The notes beneath the pieces were generated by a model. It worked only from the letters and a program-made list of their open reading frames with translations. It was not told where the DNA came from and did not search any database. A stretch of 64,000 nucleotides of DNA from Clostridiales bacterium (GTDB taxonomy: Bacteria > Bacillota > Clostridia > Oscillospirales > Oscillospiraceae), in NCBI GenBank assembly GCA_022782265.1, contig JALFOM010000084.1, positions 1,961-65,960 on the forward strand, read 5' to 3'. A program made the position numbers and the translations under genes. Shown here one piece after another: positions 2,913 to 14,228 of this stretch. Numbering within the stretch: position 1 is the first letter of the stretch; each line of letters begins with the position of its first letter.

Positions 2913-3836
2913 ATGAAAAAAACGATCATTACAGCGCTGATGTGCCTGGCGCTGGTCTCTGCCATGCCCACGGCGGCCTATGCCATGGAGCTTGTGGTAG
3001 GCGGGCAGCCGATGGGAATACAGCTCAATACCGACGGGGTAATGGTGGCAGGGCTGGCCTCCATAGAGACGGCAGAGGGCAAGAAGTCCCCCGCCGCCGA
3101 CGCAGGCTTTCGCCAGGGCGACATCATTATCAAAATCGGCGAGAGAAAAGTGAGCTGCGCGGCGGATTTTATTGACGCGGTGGCGGCGCTGAACGGGCAG
3201 AGCGCCCCGGTCACGGCCCTGAGAGACGGCAAAACGGTGGAGATGAGGGTGCAGCCGGTACTGTCCGGCGAGAACCAGTGGATGCTGGGCATGTGGCTTC
3301 GCGACGGCATATCGGGTATTGGCACTTTGACCTTTTGCGATCCGGACTCCGGGATATACGGCGCGCTGGGCCACAGTGTGAATGACGAGGACAGCGGCGT
3401 GATCCTGCCTCTGGGCGACGGCAGCATCAGCAGCGCCCAGATTGTGGGCGTCGTGCCCGGATCTCAGGGCGCGCCGGGTGAGCTGACCGGTGCCACCGAC
3501 ACCGGCAAGATCCTGGGCAGCGTGGAAAAGAACACGGAAAAGGGGATTTACGGTCACAGCTATGTGTCCCTGGGCGGCAAGGTGGTGGAGACCGGCAAGA
3601 TTCAAACCGGCAGCGCCTCGATTATTTCCACCGTCAGCGGCAGCGAGCCGAAGGAATACGCGGTGGAGATCAACCGGGTGTACAGTGAAAGCGGCTGTAC
3701 CCGGGTGATGCTGACCGTCACAGACCCTGAGCTCTGCGCCGCCACCGGCGGCATCGTACAGGGCATGAGCGGCAGCCCTATCCTCCAGAACGGCTGCCTG
3801 GTGGGTGCGGTGACCCATGTGTCAGTACCCACATGA
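2913..3836 (+). CDS. spoIVB: SpoIVB peptidase (S55), 5' portion of a gene split by an insertion; reads into the element and stops after 4 foreign codons
   Basis: Signal/TM N-terminus, PDZ-like GFRQGDIIIKIGERKV, catalytic His context GALGHSV and Ser context GMSGSPILQNG. The ORF ends ...GAVTHVSVPT* directly after the 17-bp junction repeat. The conserved tail is found at 13290-13388. Confidence 0.9.
   Translation: MKKTIITALMCLALVSAMPTAAYAMELVVGGQPMGIQLNTDGVMVAGLASIETAEGKKSPAADAGFRQGDIIIKIGERKVSCAADFIDAVAALNGQSAPVTALRDGKTVEMRVQPVLSGENQWMLGMWLRDGISGIGTLTFCDPDSGIYGALGHSVNDEDSGVILPLGDGSISSAQIVGVVPGSQGAPGELTGATDTGKILGSVEKNTEKGIYGHSYVSLGGKVVETGKIQTGSASIISTVSGSEPKEYAVEINRVYSESGCTRVMLTVTDPELCAATGGIVQGMSGSPILQNGCLVGAVTHVSVPT
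3806..3822 (+). repeat. left junction core (attL) TGCGGTGACCCATGTGT
   Basis: Identical 17-mer at 13289-13305. The flanking bases differ on both sides (g/a before, c/t after). Confidence 0.9.
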
Positions 3837-4006
3837 TACCCACCAGAAAGAAAGCGTTTCCTCACACAAAATACATAGTCACGGAAAGCGAGAATACGGA
3901 AAAAGCAACAAGAGCGCGGCGTCACGGCTGCGCTCTTGCTGCTTCATTTGTCTGATTGCATGATTATGACCGCAAAAGACATACAATAATTTTTTGGATT
4001 TAATAG

Positions 4007-4035
4007 TTGACAAAAGCAACGAATTTTAGTAATAT
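4007..4035 (+). promoter_or_regulatory. sigma-A type promoter of the two-gene cassette
   Basis: TTGACA (4007-4012), 17-nt spacer, TAATAT (4030-4035), 28 nt upstream of the ATG at 4064. Confidence 0.55.
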
Positions 4036-4063
4036 AGGCGCAGAAAAATATTGGAGGTTTTGC

Positions 4064-4687
4064 ATGAACCATTTCGATCTGAAATCTGAACTGATTACGC
4101 CCGCTGTTGCTCTGAAGCTTGTCCCTGCATTTGTTTCCGCTTATGAACTTGCCGCCTCTGCGGCTAACGAAATTGAGTTTCTCGGTGGAGAACTGCGGTA
4201 TCAGATTCTTCCTCATCTCCGTAACTGGGCGGTCGAGTTTGAGCTGGACAGGCGGGCACGCTTGGGCTTGATTCCGTTTTCCAGTAGCTTTGAGAGCAAC
4301 TCAAGGAACAATCACAGGCATCTTGAACTTCGGAAAGGCAATGTACTTCTTACGATAAGCCAGACGCATCACTGCATCGATCTTCCGCGTGATTGCGTGT
4401 TTCGTAACGAGCACTGCGAAAATGGGCAGTATTGCTTGGAAGGCTTCGAGGAAAAAGTTGACACCGCCAGCAAAAACATTTATGCTATCCTTACGCATGG
4501 TCAGGGCAAATCTGCTCCGGGCTTCATCCTCTGTGGCGTCCCTGCTCCGGATATGAAAAAGTGGTCCCAGGCGGTCAACCTTTATGATGTTGTTCGCAAT
4601 CTTGAGCTCGTAGACGATGCGCCTGTTACCGAAGAAATCCACCTGGGGTACAGAGAGTCCGTGAAAAAGAATATTACCAATGCTTGA
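4064..4687 (+). CDS. hypothetical protein, 207 aa, no family recognised
   Basis: ATG at 4064 preceded by GGAGG with 7-nt spacing (the track start at 4007 is a TTG inside the promoter). This is a 624-nt open frame in comparatively AT-rich DNA. It lies 16 nt upstream of the XRE-ImmA gene, so an operon is likely. Confidence 0.7.
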   Translation: MNHFDLKSELITPAVALKLVPAFVSAYELAASAANEIEFLGGELRYQILPHLRNWAVEFELDRRARLGLIPFSSSFESNSRNNHRHLELRKGNVLLTISQTHHCIDLPRDCVFRNEHCENGQYCLEGFEEKVDTASKNIYAILTHGQGKSAPGFILCGVPAPDMKKWSQAVNLYDVVRNLELVDDAPVTEEIHLGYRESVKKNITNA

Positions 4688-4703
4688 TGGGAGGCTTTAG
4701 ACA

Positions 4704-5876
4704 ATGTCTAGGCAATCCAAAATTGCTCAAAAAGAGCCTTTGGTGCCGGAAAGGATACGAGAAGCTCGGCTTGCAAGGGGCATGTCGGCAATAGATCTAG
4801 CTAGCGCAATTGGAGTATCCAGGCAAGCAATTTCAAAATATGAGCTTGGAAGTGCCGAGCCTAGTTTTGCAGTCCTTGAGGCTCTTTCTAATACCCTTAG
4901 AATGCCCATTTCTTTCTTTTCAAAACCACCTGAGGCCGGAGCAAACCGGGGAACGACTTTTTACCGCAGCTTAAAAACCAACGCGGCACGTGCAAAAGAC
5001 ATTATGGCGACCAAGAGTGAGTGGGCTTCAGAAATAGCTAGTTTTGTAGAGCGAGGAATAGTTTTTCCTGATGTGGATATCCCGAGCCTTCCCGAAGAAT
5101 TCAATAATGCAGAAGCATTTTCTGACGAGGAAATAGAAGATATTGCGGAGTATGTTCGACGCTGCTGGAAGTTAGGGAATGGCCCTATCCCTAATATTTC
5201 GAGGACACTTGAGGCCCACGGGGTTGTAATCTCCACCATAAAAACCGGATGCGAAGAAACTGACGCTTGTTCATGCTTCATAGATTCTCGCCCATTCATT
5301 TTCCTGGATACACAAAAGGAGTGCGCCGTACGAACAAGATTTAATCTCTCACATGAACTTGGGCACCTTATTTTGCATGGCGGGATCTCGCAGAGTGACA
5401 TTGCAGACAAAAAAGAGCAAGATCGAATTGAAAAAGAAGCAAACCATTTTGCTTCGTGTTTTTTGCTCCCAAGAGAATCCTTTCTGCGAGATATCCGCTC
5501 AACATCGCTGACTTCCTTCCTGCCGTTGAAGAAAAAATGGAAGGTTTCTATTCAAGCTATGGTATATAGGTGCAAGGAACTTGGCGTTTTTTCAGATAGC
5601 CAGATGATCTATATACAAAAACAAATATCTGCAAGGCGCTGGAGAAAAAACGAACCGTTTGATGATGAGTGGCCCTGTGAAGAACCAATCGTACTAAGGA
5701 CTGCGGTCAATATGCTTGTTGACCGAGGAGACTTTTCTAAAGAGGATTTTAGTTCAATCCTTAGGTTCCCTGCGTTAGATATCGAGGAGATTTGCTCTTT
5801 GCCAGAAGGATTTCTAAGCGAAAGGGAACAGGATATGCCAATAATCATTGATTTTGCCACAAAAAGGCAGATCTAA
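4704..5876 (+). CDS. XRE-family HTH fused to ImmA/IrrE (COG2856-type) zinc metallopeptidase
   Basis: 390 aa. N-terminal HTH: IREARLARGMSAIDLASAIGVSRQAISKYELG. HEXXH motif: SHELGHLILH. Downstream EKEANHFASCFLLP supplies the third-ligand region typical of the ImmA/IrrE family. A C-terminal extension of roughly 100 aa follows. Confidence 0.85.
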   Translation: MSRQSKIAQKEPLVPERIREARLARGMSAIDLASAIGVSRQAISKYELGSAEPSFAVLEALSNTLRMPISFFSKPPEAGANRGTTFYRSLKTNAARAKDIMATKSEWASEIASFVERGIVFPDVDIPSLPEEFNNAEAFSDEEIEDIAEYVRRCWKLGNGPIPNISRTLEAHGVVISTIKTGCEETDACSCFIDSRPFIFLDTQKECAVRTRFNLSHELGHLILHGGISQSDIADKKEQDRIEKEANHFASCFLLPRESFLRDIRSTSLTSFLPLKKKWKVSIQAMVYRCKELGVFSDSQMIYIQKQISARRWRKNEPFDDEWPCEEPIVLRTAVNMLVDRGDFSKEDFSSILRFPALDIEEICSLPEGFLSEREQDMPIIIDFATKRQI

Positions 5877-5905
5877 CCGAAACAATACAATATTGTTGTC
5901 CTTTA

Positions 5906-5937
5906 GGGAAGCATGTTTAAGAAGCATGCTTCCCTTT
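5906..5937 (+). terminator. rho-independent terminator closing the two-gene cassette
   Basis: gggaagcatg ... catgcttccc stem followed by tttt. Confidence 0.65.
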
Positions 5938-5985
5938 TCGCGTAGAAGCTATTCCAATTTAATCACAAGGAGGCGGACAGAACGC

Positions 5986-6336
5986 ATGAGAGCACTGGTT
6001 GCTCAAGAAGGGAGCTTTTCTTTTTACCGGGTTCCCCGGCAGCTTATCAAGGGGCGGGAGTATCGTCCGCTGTCGCCCGCTGGGAAGCTGCTGTTTGCCC
6101 TGCTTCTCGACCGCGTGAGCCTGTCCGTAAAAAACGGCTGGCGGGACGGGGAGGGGCGGACATATGTGTATTACGCCGTCGCGGAGATCTGCGAGGACTT
6201 CGGCTGCAGCCGCGTCACCGCCGGAAAGCTGCTTTCGGAGCTGGAGCGGATCGGCCTGATCGAGCGAAAAAAGCAGGGCCAGGGCAAGCCGGATCGGATT
6301 TGCGTCCTGCAATTTTGCGCCAAACCGGACTTCTAG
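5986..6336 (+). CDS. replication initiator A (RepA_N) N-terminal domain only, probable remnant
   Basis: ATG at 5986 after AAGGAGG. The sequence FYRVPRQLIKGREYRPLSPAGKLLFALLLDRVSLSVKNGWRDGEGRTYVYY...GLIERKKQGQGKPDRI matches my memory of the Firmicute RepA_N winged-helix domain. At 116 aa it lacks the usual C-terminal half. Confidence 0.7.
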   Translation: MRALVAQEGSFSFYRVPRQLIKGREYRPLSPAGKLLFALLLDRVSLSVKNGWRDGEGRTYVYYAVAEICEDFGCSRVTAGKLLSELERIGLIERKKQGQGKPDRICVLQFCAKPDF

Positions 6337-6365
6337 ACTTCCCAAAAGGAAACTTCTAGACTTCC
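6329..6365 (+). repeat. tandem iteron-like repeats ACTTCTAGACTTCC x2 (23-bp register)
   Basis: Copies at 6329-6342 and 6352-6365. The related 11-mer CCCGAAGTCTG occurs at 6371-6381 and 6516-6526, and an AT-rich stretch lies at 6390-6500. Confidence 0.45.
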
Positions 6366-6539
6366 GCTTTCCCGAAGTCTGGAGGTAAAAATCTTTTACA
6401 TCAAGAAACCAAAAACTTATGCCCTAATAAGACTGATAGAAAGAAACTGATAAAATTATACTGAGTGATCTATTCATCCATCTATCTATCATTACTACTA
6501 ATCTGCGCGTCAAAACCCGAAGTCTGAAAGGCGCAAATG

Positions 6540-6556
6540 TGTCTCACCGTGAGACA
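6540..6556. repeat. 17-bp palindrome TGTCTCAC-C-GTGAGACA (copy 1)
   Basis: Read directly. Followed by agttttctctttt. The flanks aaatg...(a)gtttt are shared with copy 3. Confidence 0.85.
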
Positions 6557-6598
6557 AGTTTTCTCTTTTCATGCGACAAAAGGAGAAAATACGCACCG

Positions 6599-6664
6599 TG
6601 TTAAGCAAGTATGGCATTTGTTAAACACAAACGCCCTTGTTAGGGGATGACCCCTAAAACCCCG
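6599..6664 (+). repeat. left arm of a ~65-nt imperfect inverted repeat
   Basis: Contains AAGCAAGTATGGCATTTG (6603-6620), the exact reverse complement of 10652-10669. Similarity extends through caaacgcc and a ttagggg...cctaa hairpin. Confidence 0.75.
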
Positions 6665-6717
6665 CGCAGCGGAACAAACAGACGCCTTTTGGAGAAACAC
6701 CGAACCAAGATGTGCCG

Positions 6718-6746
6718 TTGACAATTAGCGTAATTATGCATATAAT
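6718..6746 (+). promoter_or_regulatory. consensus sigma-A promoter of the Phd/RelE operon
   Basis: TTGACA (6718-6723), 17-nt spacer, TATAAT (6741-6746). AAGGAGG RBS before the ATG at 6771. Confidence 0.65.
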
Positions 6747-6770
6747 AATGCTAAGCAAGGAGGTGGCGAG

Positions 6771-7058
6771 ATGCCAAATATTCGTCCTGTTTCCGATCTG
6801 AGAAATCATTTCGCTGAGATTACCAAAGACGCTCAGCTCAGCGGTGAGCCGATCTTCCTGACCAAGAACGGCGTCGGCTCCATCGTTGTCATGAGCATGG
6901 AGAGCTACGAGCAGAACCGCTATGACAGCATGGTCTACGACAAGCTGCGCGAGGCGGAGCTGCAGGCTGCCAGCACGACGGAGCGTTTGAGCCATGCCGA
7001 TGTTATGGCGAAAGCGCGTGCGTTTCTGAGCGGTGCGGAGGAGCAAAAGCGTGCATAA
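6771..7058 (+). CDS. type II antitoxin, Phd/YefM family
   Basis: 95 aa. The N-terminus MPNIRPVSDLRNHFAEITKDAQLSGEPIFLTKNGVGSIVVMSMESYE is the Phd/YefM fold signature. It overlaps the downstream toxin gene. Confidence 0.85.
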   Translation: MPNIRPVSDLRNHFAEITKDAQLSGEPIFLTKNGVGSIVVMSMESYEQNRYDSMVYDKLREAELQAASTTERLSHADVMAKARAFLSGAEEQKRA

Positions 7059-7359
7059 GATCGTTTATTTGCCGCTGGCGGAGAGCGACTTGATGGACGC
7101 GCTGGGCTATATTGCCTACACGCTGGACGCGCCAAAAGCCGCCCGCGATCTGCTGGCCGAGTTTGACGAGACGGTACAGCGCATCGCGGAGTTCCCCTAC
7201 GCCCACGAGCTTTACCGGACAGACCGCCCGATGAAAGACGAGATCCGCAAGGTGCCGGTCAAGAACTATGTGCTCTATTATGCCGTCTTTCAAGACCGCG
7301 TAGAGATTCGCCGCTTTCTCTACGGCAAGAGAGACAGAAGCAGAATCGATGAAGAATAA
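7051..7359 (+). CDS. type II toxin, RelE/ParE family
   Basis: GTG at 7051 overlaps the antitoxin stop by 8 nt. About 102 aa with a DEIRKVPVKNYVLYYAVFQDRVEIRRFLYGKRD ParE/RelE-like C-terminus. Confidence 0.8.
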   Translation: MHKIVYLPLAESDLMDALGYIAYTLDAPKAARDLLAEFDETVQRIAEFPYAHELYRTDRPMKDEIRKVPVKNYVLYYAVFQDRVEIRRFLYGKRDRSRIDEE

Positions 7360-7528
7360 TGCAACACAGAAGATGAAGCTGCCCGCCGTCCCCGTCCCGG
7401 ACATGAGCAATCTCACGAAGGAGCAGTTGAAAGCGGAAATCGAGAAGGGCTTTGCTGACACTGCCGCCGGACGAGTAACGCCCGCTGCCGAGGTGTTTGC
7501 CGAGCTGCGGGGGAAAGACACGCAGTAA
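7349..7528 (+). CDS. small antitoxin-like ORF (59 aa)
   Basis: ATG at 7349 overlaps the RelE stop. The C-terminus LKAEIEKGFADTAAGRVTPAAEVFAELR resembles the tail of RelB/ParD-type antitoxin-like proteins (from memory). Below the ORF-track size cut-off. Confidence 0.4.
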   Translation: MKNNATQKMKLPAVPVPDMSNLTKEQLKAEIEKGFADTAAGRVTPAAEVFAELRGKDTQ

Positions 7529-7538
7529 ACCCATAATC

Positions 7539-7555
7539 CGTTTCACCGTGAAACG
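7539..7555. repeat. 17-bp palindrome CGTTTCAC-C-GTGAAACG
   Basis: Read directly. The flank aatccgtttcac is shared with the copy at 10579-10603. Confidence 0.8.
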
Positions 7556-7583
7556 AATTTACAAACGAATAGCTATCAACCGG

Positions 7584-7610
7584 AAACTTGTCTCACCGTG
7601 AGACAAGTTT
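7584..7610. repeat. 27-bp palindrome AAACTTGTCTCAC-C-GTGAGACAAGTTT (copy 2), terminator-like and possible oriT inverted repeat
   Basis: 13-bp perfect arms followed by ccttttttc. It sits immediately upstream of the mobC RBS. Confidence 0.8.
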
Positions 7611-7630
7611 CCTTTTTTCATGGAGGTGTT

Positions 7631-7939
7631 ATGAGAGAACGCAATCATTTTATCGGCCTTTGGCTAAATAATGAGGAATACGCCCATCTGCGAGAGCAAT
7701 GCGAGATCACGGGTTTACCAACCAGCGTACTGATCCGCAATGCCCTCGCTGGGGTACAGCTCCGGCAAAGACCACCCGGCGAATACGCGGGCCTGCTGCG
7801 GGCTCTATCGGCCATCGGCAACAACGTCAACCAAATCGCGCACTGGGCCAACGCCAAAAAGAGCATCCAAGAGGCGGAGATCCGGCAGGCGGTTCTGCTG
7901 GCAAACAAGGCGTGGGAGTTGGTAAAGGAGACGTTGTAA
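7631..7939 (+). CDS. mobC: plasmid mobilisation relaxosome protein MobC (orphan, no relaxase follows)
   Basis: ATG at 7631 after GGAGG. The sequence LNNEEYAHLREQCEITGLPTSVLIRNALAG...LSAIGNNVNQIAHWANA matches the MobC RHH plus IGNNLNQIAR motif. Confidence 0.85.
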   Translation: MRERNHFIGLWLNNEEYAHLREQCEITGLPTSVLIRNALAGVQLRQRPPGEYAGLLRALSAIGNNVNQIAHWANAKKSIQEAEIRQAVLLANKAWELVKETL

Positions 7940-7942
7940 ATG

Positions 7943-7959
7943 TGTCTCACCGTGAGACA
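7943..7959. repeat. 17-bp palindrome TGTCTCAC-C-GTGAGACA (copy 3)
   Basis: Starts 4 nt after the mobC stop. 7938-7965 is a direct repeat of 6535-6562 with one mismatch. Confidence 0.85.
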
Positions 7960-8114
7960 GGTTTTGACCGAGCTTCTGATGTCACTCAAAGCTCAAACTC
8001 TTCTTATTTGCGCTGTCGTGATATAATAAAGAAAAAACTTTTCCTGTTTTTGTGACACTTTGCTCAAAAAATGGATTTATATAAGTGAGGGCCCTTAAAC
8101 AAAGGAGACGAGGT

Positions 8115-8687
8115 ATGAACGACAGAGATATAGTCAATTTATACTGGCAGCGTTCAGAGCAGGCCATAGCGGAAACCGAGCGGAAATACGGGAGTTACTG
8201 CCACATTATCGCATATAACATCCTCGAAAACAGCGAAGATTCCGAGGAGTGCGTCAATGATACCTGGATGAGCGCATGGAACGCAATGCCGGACAAGCGC
8301 CCGGACCGGCTCAGCCCCTTCCTTGCCCGGATCACACGCAACTTCGCTCTGACAAAGATCGTCCGTCGCACGGCGAAGAAACGGGGCGGCGGTGAAGCAG
8401 AGCTTGCGCTGGAGGAGCTGGACGAGTGTCTTTCCTCCGGCTACGATCTGGAAAAGGAAATCGAAGATCGGGAGCTGAGTCGCGCCATAGACGAATTTAT
8501 AGGGCAGCTCGGTGAAGAAGAACAGCTTGTATTTGTCAGCCGGTATTGGTTCGTGGCGACCGAGCGGGAGATCGCGGAAAAGCTGGGCCTGAGCCGCAGT
8601 GGCGTCGCCGCCATGCTGAAAAGGACAAGAGGCAAGTTGAAGACATACCTGTTGATGGAGGGCTTATGTACAATTCGGAACGAATGA
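8115..8687 (+). CDS. sigma-70 family (ECF-like) RNA polymerase sigma factor, element copy
   Basis: ATG at 8115 after AAAGGAG. The region-2-like segment is IVNLYWQRSEQAIAETERKYGSYCHIIAYNILENSEDSEECVNDTWMSAW and region 4 is REIAEKLGLSRSGVAAMLKRTRGKL. By eye it is more than half identical to the chromosomal copy at 23649-24206. Confidence 0.85.
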   Translation: MNDRDIVNLYWQRSEQAIAETERKYGSYCHIIAYNILENSEDSEECVNDTWMSAWNAMPDKRPDRLSPFLARITRNFALTKIVRRTAKKRGGGEAELALEELDECLSSGYDLEKEIEDRELSRAIDEFIGQLGEEEQLVFVSRYWFVATEREIAEKLGLSRSGVAAMLKRTRGKLKTYLLMEGLCTIRNE

Positions 8688-9736
8688 TGAAAGCCGTTGG
8701 AGACATTTCCGATGATAAGATCGAGAAAACCGGCCGCGCGCTGGGCTATCAAAAAGAGAGACACAGCATGTCTCGCGCCCCCGTTCGGATGGGGAGATGG
8801 CTGTCCATTGCTGCGGTGGTTGCGCTGATCCTCGCGCTGGGTGTGACGGCCTATGCAATCTATACGCACTGGTCGCGAGGCATGGAGCAACGACTTCCCG
8901 CCACAGAGGAAGAAAAAGAACTGGCAGAGCAGAGCGGCCTGTCCGACACTTCCCATACTGTCAGCGCCACAGCCAACGGCGTGACGATCTCTGTGGAGCA
9001 GACGATCATCGACGGAGATTCCGCCGAGATTGCCCTGCGGATCGAGGGTTGGCAGCTTGACCGGGAACAGGAACTTGACGCCACCGTTTGGGGCTGGATG
9101 CCTACCTTCAACGGAGAAGGAGCGCCTGCGATGGGCGGCAGTTTCGTGGAAGACCGCGACGCAAATGACCGTGTTTTCATTATTGCGGCTGACGGCTCGA
9201 TGGAATTCGATATCTGGGCCAGAGCAGGAGACAAGCTAGGTACACTTTCCGGAAAAGAAATCCGTATTTGCATTGAAAGTTTAGGCGTTGGAGGTCTTAA
9301 AAGCGAGTATCAGCCGTTGGTGGAAGGCCCCTGGGAACTCGTTTGGACACCCAGTAGCAACAGCGAACTGCTGACCGTACAGCCTGATGCAGACCTCGGT
9401 GATACCGGGATCAAGTTGGTTTCCGCGGAGGTTGGCCCGATTTCTGCGAAGGTGGCGCTACAGCTTCCCGAACTCTGGAAGGGCTACGAAACCTTGGAGC
9501 ACCACGATCTCCAACTCGTGGGCGTGCGGCTGACCGACGGGACGGTGCTGACCAACATCTTTGGGCCGCCCACGCAGGAGGGCTACGCGGATATCGACAA
9601 TTTGATCCTTGAGCTGGACTACTCTTCGCATCAGATCCTCCAGCCGGAGCAGGTGGAGGCACTGATTTTTGCCAGCAACTTCCCTTGGGCGAGAACATTG
9701 ACAGACATCGATCTGATCATTATTCCAATCAAATAG
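8666..9736 (+). CDS. single-pass membrane protein co-translated with the sigma factor (putative anti-sigma factor)
   Basis: ATG at 8666 within GGAGGGCTTATG, the same overlap context as 24200. N-terminal cytoplasmic segment, TM helix WLSIAAVVALILALGVTAYAI, then a ~270-aa extracytoplasmic domain. Confidence 0.6.
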   Translation: MYNSERMMKAVGDISDDKIEKTGRALGYQKERHSMSRAPVRMGRWLSIAAVVALILALGVTAYAIYTHWSRGMEQRLPATEEEKELAEQSGLSDTSHTVSATANGVTISVEQTIIDGDSAEIALRIEGWQLDREQELDATVWGWMPTFNGEGAPAMGGSFVEDRDANDRVFIIAADGSMEFDIWARAGDKLGTLSGKEIRICIESLGVGGLKSEYQPLVEGPWELVWTPSSNSELLTVQPDADLGDTGIKLVSAEVGPISAKVALQLPELWKGYETLEHHDLQLVGVRLTDGTVLTNIFGPPTQEGYADIDNLILELDYSSHQILQPEQVEALIFASNFPWARTLTDIDLIIIPIK

Positions 9737-9760
9737 TAAGTATTGGAACACATAGAGATC

Positions 9761-9949
9761 ATGATCATAGAACAAGAACGAAAGTCATTATGGCTCCCAT
9801 GTCCAAAGTGTGGAGCCAGGACAAAGATCAAAATCTATGAGGACACCGTACTTCTGAATTTCCCCTTATACTGTACCAAGTGCAAGGAAGAAACCAAACT
9901 CGGCGTGATAAAATTCAAGATCGTAGTTAGCGACGAGCCAGACGCTTAA
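9761..9949 (+). CDS. cysteine-rich KTR domain (zinc-ribbon) small protein
   Basis: CPKCG...NFPLYCTKCK...EPDA pattern, as I remember for the Cys-rich KTR family on Firmicute mobile elements. The start is uncertain (TTG 9743 or ATG 9761). Confidence 0.7.
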   Translation: MIIEQERKSLWLPCPKCGARTKIKIYEDTVLLNFPLYCTKCKEETKLGVIKFKIVVSDEPDA

Positions 9950-9954
9950 AGCGC

Positions 9955-9990
9955 AGAGCCTGCTACTCCGTGAGTGGAGAAGCAGGCTCT
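9955..9990 (+). terminator. hairpin after the KTR gene
   Basis: agagcctgct ... agcaggctct (10-bp arms) followed by ttctgtcgtt. The T tract is weak. Confidence 0.45.
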
Positions 9991-10208
9991 TTCTGTCGTT
10001 ATTGGGCATTCAGCACAGGAGTTTTCCCTTCCCCCCGCAGGGCTGTTGGAGAAGCGTGTTTGAAATACCGCTGATTTGGCCTTATCAGTGAGATTCGGCA
10101 CCGTTGCTATAGCTTCGGTTTCGTTTTGAGATCAGGCACCGTCTATGTTCAAAAGCGAAAAGATAGTATTGCTTATTGACCTACACATTCAGAAAGCGGA
10201 GGACAGAT

Positions 10209-10580
10209 ATGTACAGCTTTCATTCTGAAAACAACATGTCCGGCGTGACGCCGGAGGAGATTGCGCGGCTGCTGCGCAGCATCGGAGCATCCGGCAGATT
10301 GGTCGGCTTCTATTACACTGTCTATATCGTGTACACGATCCTGCAAAAGCCGGATGAGTATTTCTGGATCACCAAATGCGCCTACCCGGAAACGGCCCGG
10401 TATTTCAAGGTCAGTCCGTCCTCCGTGGAGCACACGATCCGCACGCTGATCGCTTCGGTGTGGAATCGCCGCAATCATTCCGACATCAACCGCGTGGCCG
10501 GGATCGAGCTAGAGAAGCCGCCCACTAACAGCGAGTTTATCGATATACTGGTCGCCTATCTCCGCTACGGTGTGGATTAA
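10209..10580 (+). CDS. stand-alone Spo0A C-terminal (DNA-binding effector) domain protein, no receiver domain
   Basis: ATG at 10209 after GCGGAGG with 6-nt spacing. The sequence ITKCAYPETARYFKVSPSSVEHTIRTLIASVWNRRN...EKPPTNSEFIDILVAYLR parallels the Spo0A segment ...[32 protein letters not shown]...KPTNSEFIA that I recall. Confidence 0.8.
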   Translation: MYSFHSENNMSGVTPEEIARLLRSIGASGRLVGFYYTVYIVYTILQKPDEYFWITKCAYPETARYFKVSPSSVEHTIRTLIASVWNRRNHSDINRVAGIELEKPPTNSEFIDILVAYLRYGVD

Positions 10581-10603
10581 TCCGTTTCACCATGAAACGG
10601 ATT
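10579..10603 (+). terminator. hairpin AATCCGTTTCA-cca-TGAAACGGATT after the Spo0A_C gene
   Basis: 11-bp arms and a 3-nt loop, followed by ttcgc. Member of the GTTTCAC/GTGAAAC palindrome family. Confidence 0.55.
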
Positions 10604-10610
10604 TTCGCAT

Positions 10611-10675
10611 CGGGTGTTAGGTGGCGCCCCTAAAAGCGGCGTTTGAACTATCAAATGCCATACTTGCTTATAACA
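10611..10675 (-). repeat. right arm of the ~65-nt imperfect inverted repeat
   Basis: CAAATGCCATACTTGCTT (10652-10669) is the exact reverse complement of 6603-6620. Extended similarity was aligned by hand. Confidence 0.75.
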
Positions 10676-10732
10676 TGCGGCTTCCGTCGAGAAACGGATA
10701 AAAGGATTAAATAATGTAGTAATCATTCCGTA

Positions 10733-10960
10733 CTATCTCGAACGAAAAGAGGCCACTTTTCCCGATACTTGCGGTAAAATGGTGTTAAACCAAATAGAGC
10801 TGGCAGATACAATGGTGCCGAATAGAATCAAATGTCCGGCTATACGCTCGGGAAGAAATCTGCCGCAAACGACTTCTTTTTGTCGGGACTTGATTTCTTT
10901 TGCGAATTTTCGTTTTTTCAGCGCCTGATTTTGTTTTAGATATATGGAGAGAAGTCCCAA
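10733..10960 (-). CDS. possible small membrane protein (75 aa)
   Basis: TTG start preceded by GAGGAAGG with about 5-nt spacing. A basic N-terminus is followed by one hydrophobic helix, IAGHLILFGTIVSASSIWFNTIL. No homology recognised. Confidence 0.3.
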   Translation of the reverse strand: MGLLSIYLKQNQALKKRKFAKEIKSRQKEVVCGRFLPERIAGHLILFGTIVSASSIWFNTILPQVSGKVASFRSR

Positions 10961-11276
10961 AGGACACCTTCCTCGAAAACCGAATAGGGCAGGCAGATAC
11001 GTTCTGCTTGTGGGGAGCCGGGCAGCGGGTGCGCCAGGATGCCGATCAACCGAGAGGTGAAGATATCAGGCTGAGCGAGCAACACCGCGCTGTATGCAGC
11101 CGATGGCAAGGCTGAGGGCCACGATCCGCGAGCAGAGATAATGATACCTACGTTGATGGCACGTCACAGAGTCAAACGTCCCGCCATGAGCATGGAGGGA
11201 GGCACGAAACGATCCTACGGAGCGGCCCGCCCCGCCGCCGTCTGACCCTCGCCTTTGAAAAACCGTGAATCTTACG

Positions 11277-11313
11277 ATCCGCACTACACAAGAGTGCGGA
11301 TTTTGTCTTTTTT
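11277..11313 (+). terminator. strong rho-independent terminator in a gene-poor stretch
   Basis: atccgcact-acacaag-agtgcggat followed by tttgtctttttt. No convincing upstream CDS. Confidence 0.7.
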
Positions 11314-11318
11314 AGTCG

Positions 11319-11345
11319 AAATGTGTTTCACGGTGAAACACATTT
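11319..11345. repeat. 27-bp perfect palindrome AAATGTGTTTCAC-G-GTGAAACACATTT
   Basis: 13-bp arms. The half sites GTTTCAC/GTGAAAC equal parS half sites, but one extra central base is present. Confidence 0.85.
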
Positions 11346-11402
11346 TTCAAGCCCAAATTTGGCATACTAAACCATATCCACACACGAAAGGAGCGGGAGC
11401 TT

Positions 11403-11582
11403 ATCATCGTTTCCACGATTAAAAACGAAAACGCCGTGGTGCAGATCCACGACGATTATATTGAGGATATCGACGAGAACGCGGCGCGGGTGAAGGAGAT
11501 ATTGACCAAAGCCCGCAAGCGCCGCAAGGCGGCCGCGAAGCCCGCCGCCGCACAACAAAAGTCTTACGCGCCGCAGCTATAA
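11403..11582 (+). CDS. small basic-tailed ORF directly upstream of the recombinase, lacking a canonical start codon (RDF candidate or decayed gene)
   Basis: AAAGGAG at 11387-11393 lies 9 nt before an in-frame ATC at 11403. The first canonical start is GTG at 11436. Translation: IIVSTIKNENAVVQIHDDYIEDIDENAARVKEILTKARKRRKAAAKPAAAQQKSYAPQL*. A short hairpin plus T-run follows at 11570-11597. Confidence 0.35.
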   Translation: MIVSTIKNENAVVQIHDDYIEDIDENAARVKEILTKARKRRKAAAKPAAAQQKSYAPQL

Positions 11583-11620
11583 TCTGCGGCCTTTTTCTAT
11601 AAATTGCCACGCCTGAAAAT

Positions 11621-11649
11621 TTGACAGGCTATGGCCGATTTGAGATAAT
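11621..11649 (+). promoter_or_regulatory. sigma-A-like promoter of the recombinase gene
   Basis: TTGACA (11621-11626), 17-nt spacer, GATAAT (11644-11649). AAAGGAGG RBS, then ATG at 11671. Confidence 0.5.
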
Positions 11650-11670
11650 ATCGACAGAAAGGAGGCCCCC

Positions 11671-13212
11671 ATGGAGCAATATCTTGAATATCTCCGTAAA
11701 TCTCGCTTTGACCGTGATTATCTGGATTTGAGTGTGGAGGAAACGCTGAAACGGCACCAGGAGATTCTGGACAGACTGGCGAGAGACAGAGGATTCTATA
11801 TTGCGAAGGTGTATCGGGAGGTCGTGTCCGGCGAGTCCATCGCCGCCCGGCCCGAGGTACAGAAGATGCTGGAAGAAGTCTCTTCCGGGATCTATACCGG
11901 GGTGCTCGTTGTCGATGTGGAGCGTCTGGCCCGCGGCAACAGCGCGGATCAGGCATACATCAGCCAGATCTTTCAGTTCTCCGACACCAAGATCATCACC
12001 CCCGCCAAGACCTACGACCCGACGGACGAATTCGACCAGGAGTATTTCGAGTTCGGCCTGTTCATGAGCCGGAGAGAGTACAAGACCATCAACCGACGCC
12101 TTGTCAGAGGCCGTCAGAGCTCCGCCAGTGAAGGAAAATACGTCGGCAGCATCGCGCCCTATGGCTACGACCGGGTGAAGCTGCAGGGTGAGAAGGGCTA
12201 TACGCTCGAACCAAATCCGGCAGAGGCGGAGGCTGTGCGGCGGATGTTCGAGCTGTACGTCCGGCGGCAGGGTACGAAAATGATCGCCAATGAGCTGAAC
12301 GACCGCAAAATCCCCACGCGCCACGGCGGGAAGTGGGATGCCTCGACGGTGGGCAACATCCTCATAAACCCCGTCTATCTGGGCAAGATCAAGCGCGGCT
12401 ACGTCAAAGAGACCAAGCGCCTGGACGAGCGGGGCAATGTGGTGTCCAGCTACAGGCATTGCAAGGACGTGGAGGACTACGACCTGTACGAGGGCCGCCA
12501 CCCCGCGCTGATCGACGACGCGCTCTTTGAAAAAGCGCAGAAGATACGCAAGGAAAACTACGTCGGCCCGAAGGTAAAAAAGCAGTACGAGCTTGTCAAT
12601 CCCTTCGCGGGCGTGATGGTCTGCGCGGAGTGCGGAAAGCCTATCGGCCGCAAGGCCTCCTCGAAGAACCACCCCAACCCGCCCCGCGTGGCCTGTACCA
12701 ATCCTCACCACTGTCACAACCGCTCCGCGAGCTTTGCGCTGGTGGAAACGGAAATCCTGAGCGCGCTGCGGAGCTGGCTGGACGGCTACAGGATCAAGCT
12801 GGACACCGTGGGCTTTGCGGAGGATATAGCGGACTGTCGGCGGCAGCTGGAACGGATCGCAGCGGAGCGGGAGAAGCTGAAAGCGCAGCTTGACCGGGCC
12901 TACACACTGGTGGAGCAGGGCGTTTACAGTTTGGAGGTCTTCGGGGAACGGTGCGACAAGCTGACGCGAGAGCTGAATGATCTGCAGGAGCAGCAGGACG
13001 CCGCAGAGCAGAGTTTGGCGCAGTATGAGGCCGACGAGAGCAGCCAGCAGGAGATCATTCCGCAGACGGAGACGCTCCTGGCAAGCTACGACGAGTTGAC
13101 CGTACAGGAGCGCAACGAGCTCTTGAAGACCATCCTTTACAAGATTGAATACTACCGGGGAGAGGATGGGATCGTGTCCATTGACCTGTATCCCAGGCTC
13201 CCTAAAGCATAA
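11671..13212 (+). CDS. large serine recombinase (resolvase/invertase N-domain, recombinase domain, zinc ribbon, coiled coil)
   Basis: 513 aa. The catalytic-Ser context YLRKSRFD resembles the YLRRSRQD I recall for SPbeta SprA. Recombinase domain: GYTLEPNPAEAEAVRRMFELYV...WDASTVGNILINPVYLGK. Zinc ribbon: CAECGKPIG...CTNPHHCHN. A C-terminal coiled coil is present. Confidence 0.95.
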   Translation: MEQYLEYLRKSRFDRDYLDLSVEETLKRHQEILDRLARDRGFYIAKVYREVVSGESIAARPEVQKMLEEVSSGIYTGVLVVDVERLARGNSADQAYISQIFQFSDTKIITPAKTYDPTDEFDQEYFEFGLFMSRREYKTINRRLVRGRQSSASEGKYVGSIAPYGYDRVKLQGEKGYTLEPNPAEAEAVRRMFELYVRRQGTKMIANELNDRKIPTRHGGKWDASTVGNILINPVYLGKIKRGYVKETKRLDERGNVVSSYRHCKDVEDYDLYEGRHPALIDDALFEKAQKIRKENYVGPKVKKQYELVNPFAGVMVCAECGKPIGRKASSKNHPNPPRVACTNPHHCHNRSASFALVETEILSALRSWLDGYRIKLDTVGFAEDIADCRRQLERIAAEREKLKAQLDRAYTLVEQGVYSLEVFGERCDKLTRELNDLQEQQDAAEQSLAQYEADESSQQEIIPQTETLLASYDELTVQERNELLKTILYKIEYYRGEDGIVSIDLYPRLPKA

Positions 13213-13288
13213 GTTTGTATCCCCCAGTCACGGGCCGCTGTGCGTCCCGCGACAGCCCCCTTTAGGCAAGGGGGCCCTGTAGCCATCA

Positions 13289-13305
13289 TGCGGTGACCCA
13301 TGTGT
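13289..13305 (+). repeat. right junction core (attR) TGCGGTGACCCATGTGT
   Basis: Identical to 3806-3822. Confidence 0.9.
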
Positions 13306-13388
13306 TTGTCAACGATCCCACCAGGGGCTACGGCATCAGCATCCAGGACATGCTGGAGACAGCGGAGATTGAGGACAAGGCGGCGTAA
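13290..13388 (+). pseudogene. spoIVB: 3' fragment of spoIVB (last 32 codons plus stop), separated from its 5' part by the element
   Basis: My translation is AVTHVFVNDPTRGYGISIQDMLETAEIEDKAA*. The first five codons duplicate 3807-3821. There is no start codon or RBS of its own. Confidence 0.85.
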
Positions 13389-13452
13389 AAAGCCTTTGCA
13401 GAAACAGAAAATTCTGTTATCATGTCAGCCACGGACGTGACCGTTTGTGATG

Positions 13453-13490
13453 AATGTGCAAGCCGATTTCGGTTTGCACATTTATCTTTT
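13453..13490 (+). terminator. terminator after the spoIVB 3' end
   Basis: aatgtgcaagccga-tt-tcggtttgcacatt (14-bp stem with one G-U pair) followed by tatctttt. A second hairpin, ggtgcaccgga...tccggtgcacc plus tttt, lies at 13513-13544. Confidence 0.6.
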
Positions 13491-13557
13491 GTGCTTTAGC
13501 GCCAATCAATATGGTGCACCGGAAAACATTCCGGTGCACCTTTTGCCGGGGGCCATT

Positions 13558-14124
13558 TTAAAGAGGAAGGAAAGGTTTCAAGGTTTCTTTGACTTTGTCG
13601 GCGTCGGGAAGGGCATACATCACAAATCTCTCGCACATGCCGGTATTGTCGTCCGTAATCGCGCCGCTGAGCATGGCAGCTCTCCGCTTCCAGGGCTTCG
13701 CCTTTATGGCGTACTCACCGCAGAGCAGAGAGGTATGTCCGTCCTCATCCCGGTCCAGCTTTGCCGCGCTGATGGCGGAATACTCAACCGACTTGGCACT
13801 GTCCGTCAGGATGAGCAGGCGCTTGTCTGTGATGGCGTAAAGCGCGCGCTTTCTGATCTTTGAAGCGTCAAGCAGTCCGCGCAGAATGATAAAGATGCCG
13901 CAGGCTGCCACAATGACCAGCACAGCGGGCTTCAGCGGTGCATTGTTTATGCCGGCAAGAATCACATAGGCCACGCAGACGGCAATGGTCACCAGGGCCG
14001 TGATGATCCCGCTTCGGATAAAGGGGCTTTTATGTGTCTTATCCAGAGGCTCAAAGGGCTCCGGGCGTCCGCTCCAAAGCAGTTTTTCCTCTTCTCTCAG
14101 CGATTCTTTCAACAGCTCTTCCAT
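13558..14124 (-). CDS. membrane-flanked bacterial PH domain (DUF304-like) protein
   Basis: 188 aa. The EKLLWSGRP motif is followed by two TM helices and then a PH-like C-terminal domain. Confidence 0.65.
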   Translation of the reverse strand: MEELLKESLREEEKLLWSGRPEPFEPLDKTHKSPFIRSGIITALVTIAVCVAYVILAGINNAPLKPAVLVIVAACGIFIILRGLLDASKIRKRALYAITDKRLLILTDSAKSVEYSAISAAKLDRDEDGHTSLLCGEYAIKAKPWKRRAAMLSGAITDDNTGMCERFVMYALPDADKVKETLKPFLPL

Positions 14125-14228
14125 AGCTACCTCCTTATGTCTCCCGGTTACCCGGGATCTGCCCTTATTGTAGCAGAGGGGCCGGTAAAGATGGGGTTAA
14201 GGAGGGATGAAGGGCTGTAAATGTTCCG

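Follow-up and report, generated by a model that had tools for sequence, protein, structure and literature searches.

Spo0A is the master switch of sporulation, and sporulation governs the persistence and transmission of many gut Clostridia. Several mobile elements interrupt sporulation genes (skin in sigK, SPbeta in spsM and gin in gerE, all of them mother-cell genes), and elements of the Tn916 type carry small regulators and a sigma-like protein beside xis-int. The Pfam family Spo0A_C (PF08769) has been found enriched in the mobile elements of gut Firmicutes (Jiang et al. 2019, PMC6907783), and truncated, effector-only spo0A homologues have been described in human-gut viromes, where mimicry of the host regulator was put forward as a hypothesis (Schwartz et al. 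2023, PMC10294663). Multiple spo0A paralogues have been noted in Clostridiales genomes (Galperin et al., preprint 10.1101/2022.02.25.481979), and in Faecalibacterium duncaniae, which does not sporulate, proteomics has picked up three Spo0A homologues (PMC13020158). Here we describe an element inserted in spoIVB on contig JALFOM010000084.1 of a Clostridiales bacterium (assembly GCA_022782265.1), of which positions 1,961 to 65,960 of the forward strand, 64,000 nucleotides in all, were analysed (the window). The element encodes a Spo0A_C protein without a receiver domain, which may act on the control region of the element's own recombinase.

A receiver-less Spo0A effector domain

The gene at 10209-10580 (plus strand, ATG start) encodes a 123-aa protein that consists of the Spo0A_C domain alone. 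Homology to this family, proposed by an earlier note on this DNA from an alignment made by eye, is confirmed by profile search: against PF08769 the protein scores 86 bits (cutoff 25, E=2.1e-24) and covers the profile from end to end (positions 1-104 of 104). Against TIGR02875, the equivalog model for Spo0A, it scores 51.7 bits where the curated cutoff is 200, and the match is confined to positions 150-258 of 262; the protein therefore has no phospho-receiver domain, as the same note had stated, and on both counts it falls outside Spo0A proper. A phmmer search of PDB gave as its sole matches the Spo0A effector-domain structures 1LQ1 and 1FC3 (E about 1e-9), and the residues that it aligns to them (ITK, YP, VE, IR, W and PTNSEFI) are those that had been picked out by eye. 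The AlphaFold2 model has six helices and a predicted local distance difference test score (pLDDT) of 86, and a Foldseek search with it returned significant matches to the same two structures only, with E-values of 2e-5 to 4e-4, template modelling (TM) scores of 0.7-0.87 and a root-mean-square deviation of about 2 Å.

A ribosome-binding site, GGAGG, read from the sequence at 10198-10202 (plus strand), lies 6 nt ahead of the ATG and is kept in sister elements. Terminator-like hairpins stand on both flanks, an inverted repeat at 9955-9990 after the upstream Cys-rich KTR gene and a hairpin with a T-run at 10580-10606 directly 3' of the stop codon, both on the plus strand, so that the gene looks monocistronic, a transcription unit of its own. 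A consensus scan upstream of the gene found no sigma-A-type promoter. Comparison of the window gene with five orthologues from sister elements gave pairwise ratios of nonsynonymous to synonymous substitution rates (dN/dS) of 0.09-0.26, and the gene is therefore under purifying selection.

These observations bear on the idea that the gene is a decaying remnant without function. One relative is indeed frameshifted (L021 and P0074), which is what decay would look like. The dN/dS values, the intact open reading frame (ORF), ribosome-binding site and terminators, and the recurrence of the exact 123-aa protein in 144 blocks of the metagenome collection all speak against decay, and we regard a remnant as hardly credible. 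Judged from its sequence, the ORF is a functional receiver-less paralogue of the Spo0A effector domain. No second Spo0A_C copy and no host spo0A were found in the window.

The recognition helix sets the protein apart from Spo0A. This helix spans residues 70-85; where Spo0A has its invariant sequence, the window protein has SSVEHTIRTLIA, the core of which reads SSVEHTIRT, against SRVERAIRH in true Spo0A, the latter being identical in the four proteins compared, those of B. subtilis, Monoglobus, Sedimentibacter and Subdoligranulum, which span Bacilli, Clostridia and Tissierellia. Subdoligranulum belongs to the Oscillospiraceae, as does the probable host of the window. In B. subtilis numbering the four differing positions are R211S (S72 in the window protein), R214H (H75), A215T and H218T (T79), and the helix that is invariant in Spo0A is thus not found here. 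Of the residues that we take to be base-specific contacts in B. subtilis Spo0A, E213 and R217 are retained, as E74 and R78, and R214 is changed, to H75; residues 227-240 presumably form the surface that contacts sigma-A, and the equivalent stretch is not conserved in the window protein. With these four differences, DNA specificity may differ from that of Spo0A. The notion of an element-encoded copy of Spo0A thus gives way to that of a protein from a separate stand-alone family with an SVEHxIRT helix. The premise that the isolated DNA-binding domain of Spo0A can bind its targets unphosphorylated is established in the literature, and Spo0A makes specific contacts to G2, C4 and G5 of TGTCGAA (PMC3485338).

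The stand-alone family and its upstream TGTCGA sites

A word-indexed search returned 89 relatives, nearly all of 118-131 aa, and in a scan restricted to one genome for each species 53 loci turned up, at which every matched ORF is stand-alone (107-126 aa) and every host a member of the Clostridia, mostly of sporulation-capable lineages. A profile search of 1.84 billion representatives yielded 6,397 clusters at E<=1e-3, of which 957 reached E<=1e-10; most of the top 150 are 100-165 aa long. The family shares the helix signature (S/N)VEHxIRT, distinct from the SRVERAIRH of true Spo0A. One group of relatives comes from metagenome-assembled genomes of Oscillospiraceae and Ruminococcaceae and is 73-93% identical to the window protein; another, 33-45% identical, comes from Blautia, Roseburia, Dorea, Mediterraneibacter and other Lachnospiraceae. 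Genes of the Lachnospiraceae type (L023-L058) are chromosomal and lie beside HtpG, DegV, LrgAB, LytR and similar genes, with no serine recombinase within 10 kb. This rules out a serine recombinase as the universal neighbour of the family. The genes lie among housekeeping genes and look like an unstudied family of small regulators linked to Spo0A boxes. Four relatives have several Spo0A_C domains in tandem, confirmed by Pfam, in proteins of 428-849 aa: three in P0091, four each in P0094 and P0095, and five in P0096. Such proteins might reproduce, within one chain, the head-to-tail order in which Spo0A sits on tandem 0A boxes.

The DNA upstream of the family genes was examined by a k-mer test, in which the 300 nt preceding each of 39 dereplicated genes were set against 530 further upstream regions of those loci, which served as controls. 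TGTCGA ranked first among the 6-mers, being present in 21 of the 39 family regions and in 11 of the 530 controls (p=6e-20), and ATGTCGA first among the 7-mers (15/39 against 5/530). In first-order Markov simulations 2.1 sequences had TGTCGA on average, and 5 at most, where 21 were observed. The sites lie on the strand of the gene, at -75 to -190, and along 20 kb they form one sharp peak, with 24 in the bin from -500 to 0 and 1-6 in each other bin. A second TGTC occurs exactly 10 bp away in 9 of the 39 regions, against 0.005 simulated, and this 10-bp tandem spacing is the arrangement known for Spo0A; the TGTCGA core retains G2, C4 and G5, the bases contacted by Spo0A (PMC3485338). A link of the family to the 0A DNA code is therefore plausible from these upstream regions, and the boxes could be autoregulatory sites or sites of host Spo0A.

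The association with 0A-type boxes holds at the level of the family, where TGTCGA is enriched, and not within the element itself: a scan of the element found no canonical TGTCGAA, and across the window TGTCGAA and TGNCGAA both lack enrichment. The direct repeats of about 15 nt upstream of the gene, which had been thought possibly regulatory, do exist, as TGAGATTCGGCACCGT at 10089-10104 and TGAGATCAGGCACCGT at 10127-10142 (plus strand), with 14 of 16 bases identical and starts 38 nt apart. They are weak evidence for regulation, being poorly conserved and of a pattern for which 0.79 occurrences per window are expected by chance at 15 nt. Of five sister elements only L010 retains copy 2, which rules out the repeats as a conserved operator, and copy 1 is retained in part only. 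Copy 1 contains TGCCGAA on the minus strand (10094-10100), the only match to the relaxed TGNCGAA upstream of the gene, and this site is degenerate in the sister elements.

The candidate leader RNA and the recombinase control region

The gene for the large serine recombinase is preceded by a conserved non-coding block of about 335 nt (10971-11306, plus strand) that ends in a terminator hairpin. Its mean column identity over 16 elements is 85%, which exceeds the conservation of the flanking proteins, and the RNAalifold prediction comprises 88 pairs, of which 20 show compensatory changes, together with the terminal terminator hairpin. The block is known from the window, L001, L007, L009-L018 and L062, and a metagenome scan with its invariant core gave 73 loci, L070-L142. 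Where the downstream sequence is long enough, in 30 loci, a recombinase comes next in 29 (26 serine, 3 tyrosine); a Spo0A_C gene precedes the block in 24 of 51. Rfam offered one sub-threshold match and nothing beyond it, the pemK motif (RF02913) at 11138-11220, matched over the full length of the model at 29.9 bits against a gathering threshold of 34.8 (E=0.003 in a 1.1-kb search). Conservation and covariation thus mark the block as a candidate for a structured leader RNA that serves recombinase genes on the mobile elements of clostridia.

In nearly all loci the leader terminator is followed by TTTTGTCGTTT and then by a palindrome of the type GTTTCAC-N-GTGAAAC. In the window this palindrome has 13-nt arms (AAATGTGTTTCAC-G-GTGAAACACATTT, 11319-11345), and in nearly all related loci it is maintained by matched changes in its two arms (GTCTCAC/GTGAGAC, ACTTCTCAC/GTGAGAAGT), as would be expected either of an operator or of a second RNA hairpin. 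Just after the terminator lie two 0A-like half-sites on the plus strand, TGTCTTT and AGTCGAA (together 11304-11320; AGTCGAA at 11314-11320). Farther downstream, a strong sigma-A-type promoter for the recombinase, TTGACA-17-GATAAT (11621-11649, plus strand), is abutted at its -10 by TGTCGAT on the minus strand (11650-11656), a position suggestive of repression. Between the leader RNA and this promoter there is a small ORF at 11436-11582 (plus strand; 48 aa from a GTG, with the frame open further upstream), which sister elements conserve and for which Pfam gives no match; in other lineages an unrelated small, membrane-like ORF takes its place.

The sites after the terminator go together with the Spo0A_C gene. 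TGTCGA[AT] occurs there in 10 of 40 distinct loci with the gene and in none of 21 without it (Fisher p=0.009), and the relaxed form NGTCGAN in 15 of 40 with the gene and 1 of 21 without (p=0.004). Since host Spo0A should be present either way, it is more likely, on this evidence, that the boxes are read by the protein of the element itself.

A model for the action of the Spo0A_C protein

We propose tentatively, at a probability of roughly 45%, that the protein binds 0A-type sites in a phosphorylation-independent manner and that its principal place of action is the leader and recombinase control region of its own element. In this model the Spo0A_C protein would bind DNA at 0A-type sites without being phosphorylated, with its main targets in cis, namely the 0A-like boxes at 11304-11320 and the box at the recombinase -10 (11650-11656). 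Binding would most likely repress or gate expression of the recombinase. The control region of the element would thereby answer to the DNA code read by Spo0A~P of the host. Cross-talk with host Spo0A may occur, and if host sporulation is affected at all, this would be incidental or a secondary function.

Several observations weigh against this proposal. The recognition helix differs from that of Spo0A at the four positions given above. The upstream TGTCGA sites are found with 18 of the 30 chromosomal Lachnospiraceae-type genes and with 3 of the 9 mobile-element genes of the Oscillospiraceae type, and the subgroup to which the window belongs (the window and L006-L010) has no canonical TGTCGA upstream of the gene. 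One TGTCGAT beside the promoter of the recombinase is no more than chance would allow in an element of 9.5 kb. The association of post-terminator boxes with the gene rests on about six lineages, and its statistics ignore phylogeny. Finally, the box in the window is AGTCGAA, and L105, a sister element that lacks the gene, retains CGTCGAA in the corresponding position; the argument from cis targets therefore does not discriminate in the window's lineage.

Genomic contexts and the accessory status of the gene

Relatives of the gene on mobile elements share a modular setting. P0028 (75% identity) belongs to a full conjugative element with PrgI, VirB4-like and CHAP genes, inserted next to dnaX, in the order sigma70 - x - x - KTR - HTH_3 (on the opposite strand) - Spo0A_C - serine recombinase, and P0012 (77% identity) has the same type of order with a different serine recombinase. 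In P0057 and the L011 type (70-77% identity) the module is again that of P0028 and is followed by an HTH_17 excisionase and a tyrosine integrase. The Spo0A_C gene of mobile elements thus belongs to a regulatory block and always stands directly upstream of the integration module, be it a serine recombinase or xis with a tyrosine integrase. The sigma and KTR genes are missing from L061, in which Spo0A_C is present.

The most informative variant is L105 (metagenome contig Ga0256405_10000237), which has a 97%-identical recombinase and the Phd/ParE pair and leader RNA as in the window. At 2944-5372 of the oriented contig, an unrelated 723-aa ORF replaces the block of sigma, anti-sigma, KTR and Spo0A_C genes. 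As this element does without the gene beside a recombinase that is 97% identical, the gene is accessory, a component of the element's variable part, and no obligatory part of integration.

This distribution largely refutes the view that the protein is a recombination directionality factor (RDF), or an obligatory cofactor of the adjacent large serine recombinase. Its place directly upstream of the recombinase region, where Xis and RDF genes are frequent, lends the view some appeal. The gene is not co-inherited with the recombinase, however: L105 has recombinase, leader RNA and toxin-antitoxin pair and lacks it, it accompanies only 24 of the 51 leader-RNA and recombinase loci, it precedes unrelated serine recombinases as well as modules of xis and tyrosine integrase, and it occurs in chromosomal contexts that have no recombinase at all. 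A directionality factor is accordingly very improbable.

The modular setting has more to say for a generic helix-turn-helix regulator of diverged specificity, which would control the sigma, anti-sigma and KTR cargo and surface proteins and would have no link to 0A boxes or sporulation, the TGTCGA boxes of the family being sites of host Spo0A. The gene occurs together with sigma-70 and KTR genes in most mobile-element contexts, the SVEHxIRT signature departs from SRVERAIRH, the window's element has no canonical 0A box, and the scan's failure to find a sigma-A-type promoter ahead of it would fit a gene that depends on the sigma factor of the element. What such a regulator leaves unexplained is that the post-terminator TGTCGA box tracks the presence of the gene; in addition, some elements have Spo0A_C without the sigma and KTR genes (L061), and the chromosomal paralogues have no sigma or KTR neighbours. 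We consider this reading unlikely, though it deserves to be kept in view.

A host-directed role is the other possibility that the accessory status of the gene brings up. Here the constitutive domain would occupy 0A boxes of the host, as a mimic of or competitor to Spo0A, and would force, delay or block sporulation, or retune the Spo0A regulon, to the benefit of the element. The idea goes back to the earlier note. Dispensable cargo fits such a function, the hosts found are all Clostridia and mostly from lineages able to sporulate, the family is associated with TGTCGA boxes, and of the three presumed base contacts two are retained (E74, R78). Moreover, the isolated DNA-binding domain of Spo0A binds legitimate targets without phosphorylation (PMC3485338), PF08769 is enriched in the mobile elements of gut Firmicutes (PMC6907783), and an equal hypothesis has been stated for the truncated spo0A of gut viromes (PMC10294663). 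Mimicry would nonetheless have to work with a helix that departs from the invariant one of Spo0A (R211S, R214H, A215T, H218T) and without conservation of the presumed sigma-A contact surface; relatives exist as ordinary chromosomal paralogues, and several Spo0A homologues are expressed in a Faecalibacterium that does not sporulate (PMC13020158). We hold this account to be possible, with the odds against it. It does not compete with the cis-acting regulator in every respect, as the two are not mutually exclusive.

The earlier note had coupled the Spo0A_C gene to the spoIVB insertion and read the pair as manipulation of sporulation at two levels. That coupling is undercut because the relatives are independent of recombinase type and of insertion site, and the reading is weakened both by relatives inserted elsewhere, such as next to dnaX, and by L105, which lacks the gene; the coincidence of the two in the window looks fortuitous. 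A stronger version, in which the look-alike and 0A-type operators at the leader RNA and the recombinase promoter would read or override the sporulation decision of the host and so time excision from, or re-integration into, spoIVB, seems to us quite improbable. If true, it would amount to a new developmental gene-interruption switch, controlled by a mimic of the master regulator and placed in a gene of the forespore, the germ line, and not of the disposable mother cell.

The element in spoIVB

That an element sits in a sporulation gene, as had been claimed, is borne out by its boundaries. A 17-nt core, TGCGGTGACCCATGTGT, is repeated at 3806-3822 and 13289-13305, and the element with one copy of it measures 9,483 bp (3823-13305). 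The 5' part of spoIVB (2913-3836, plus strand) ends in ...GAVTHV and covers positions 2-195 of the 210 of Peptidase_S55; joined across the core to the 3' part (13306-13387), it gives a protein of 330 aa that covers positions 2-210. The insertion-bearing SpoIVB loses its last 27 residues. A contig from another sample (L145) matches both flanks at 99% identity and has spoIVB uninterrupted exactly as rejoined, which makes the 9,483-bp segment a true insertion, polymorphic among members of the species. In at least four further species, elements whose recombinase is 97% identical (L007-L010) occupy this very codon of spoIVB, GAVTHV|F, and the SpoIVB proteins of those species share only 52-59% identity with that of the window. 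Sizes in this element family range from 9.3 to 12.1 kb. In the literature collection searched, no paper treats spoIVB together with intervening elements.

The genes of the element are, in order, an unknown ORF, HTH_3+M78, RepA_N, Phd/ParE, MobC/NikA-like, sigma and anti-sigma, KTR, Spo0A_C, the leader RNA and the serine recombinase. The extracytoplasmic-function (ECF)-type sigma factor (8085-8687), the putative anti-sigma protein with DUF4179 (8546-9736) and the Cys-rich KTR protein (9743-9949; PF14205, E=1.5e-20), a frequent upstream neighbour of Spo0A_C in related elements, are all on the plus strand, as is the 513-aa large serine recombinase (11671-13212; Pfam Resolvase, Recombinase and Zn_ribbon_recom). 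The combination of RepA_N, MobC/NikA-like, toxin-antitoxin and serine recombinase genes marks an integrative mobilizable element, not a phage. No phage genes were found in the element, and a phage origin was rejected, the matches in the phage collection being only 26-34% identical and on unannotated faecal contigs; the plasmid collection returned true spo0A genes only. At the left end of the element, a 390-aa protein (4704-5876, plus strand) joins a Cro/CI-type HTH_3 domain to an M78 peptidase of the ImmA/IrrE type, a pairing that we take to be reminiscent of the repressor and anti-repressor ImmR/ImmA of ICEBs1.

The genes spoIVB and spo0A are adjacent in Monoglobus and Sedimentibacter, as they presumably are in Bacillus, and no spo0A follows spoIVB in the window or in L007-L010. 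Downstream of the window's spoIVB, the interval 13388-14200 holds a 188-aa ORF on the minus strand without a Pfam match, followed by a KdpD-like two-component pair.

Comparison with known systems

The presence of receiver-less spo0A homologues on gut mobile elements and the hypothesis of mimicry are already known, having been published in 2019 and 2023. As far as our searches show, the helix signature, the TGTCGA enrichment, the modular placement and accessory status of the gene, the conserved leader RNA and the spoIVB-specific element are apparently new. If mobile elements spread phosphorylation-independent Spo0A domains, the sporulation decision could be rewired, or the DNA code reused for the elements' own excision. 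The locus offers a compact and abundant test case for either, with its candidate operators defined, a natural variant without the gene and an empty-site allele, and the tandem TGTCGA association and the SVEHxIRT signature give concrete predictions of binding.

The closest described protein, the Spo0A effector domain (1LQ1, 1FC3), shares with the window protein the six-helix fold, the full Spo0A_C profile, the glutamate and second arginine of the recognition helix, and PTNSEFI. The window protein differs from it in being about 30% identical, in a loop before PTNSEF that is 3 residues shorter and in having no receiver. The chromosomal Spo0A_C genes of Lachnospiraceae have in common with it the stand-alone architecture, the SVEHxIRT helix and the motif NSEFIDIL; they usually have canonical, often tandem, TGTCGA sites upstream, whereas the window gene has none. 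With the truncated spo0A of viromes the locus shares a receiver-less Spo0A_C on a mobile element of gut Clostridia, although the carrier here is a small integrative mobilizable element and not a phage, and matches in the phage collection are 26-34% identical.

Two further likenesses go beyond the protein itself. The control region of these elements resembles that of Tn916 in its gene layout: small regulators, a sigma factor of the ECF type and a divergent HTH_3 gene stand directly ahead of the integration module, from which a long leader separates them. Unlike elements of the Tn916 type, those described here often have a large serine recombinase, and their leader, about 335 nt long, is conserved and predicted to be structured. 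With skin, SPbeta and gin the element shares precise insertion into a sporulation gene, a large serine recombinase at one end and a reading frame restored on rejoining. Unlike them, it carries mobilization and replication genes and occurs at the same codon in at least five species. The targets of those elements are mother-cell genes, whereas spoIVB, as established for B. subtilis (preprint 10.1101/2022.02.25.481979) and assumed here by analogy, is expressed in the forespore, and in the present case it is a polymorphism of presence and absence between samples that is seen.

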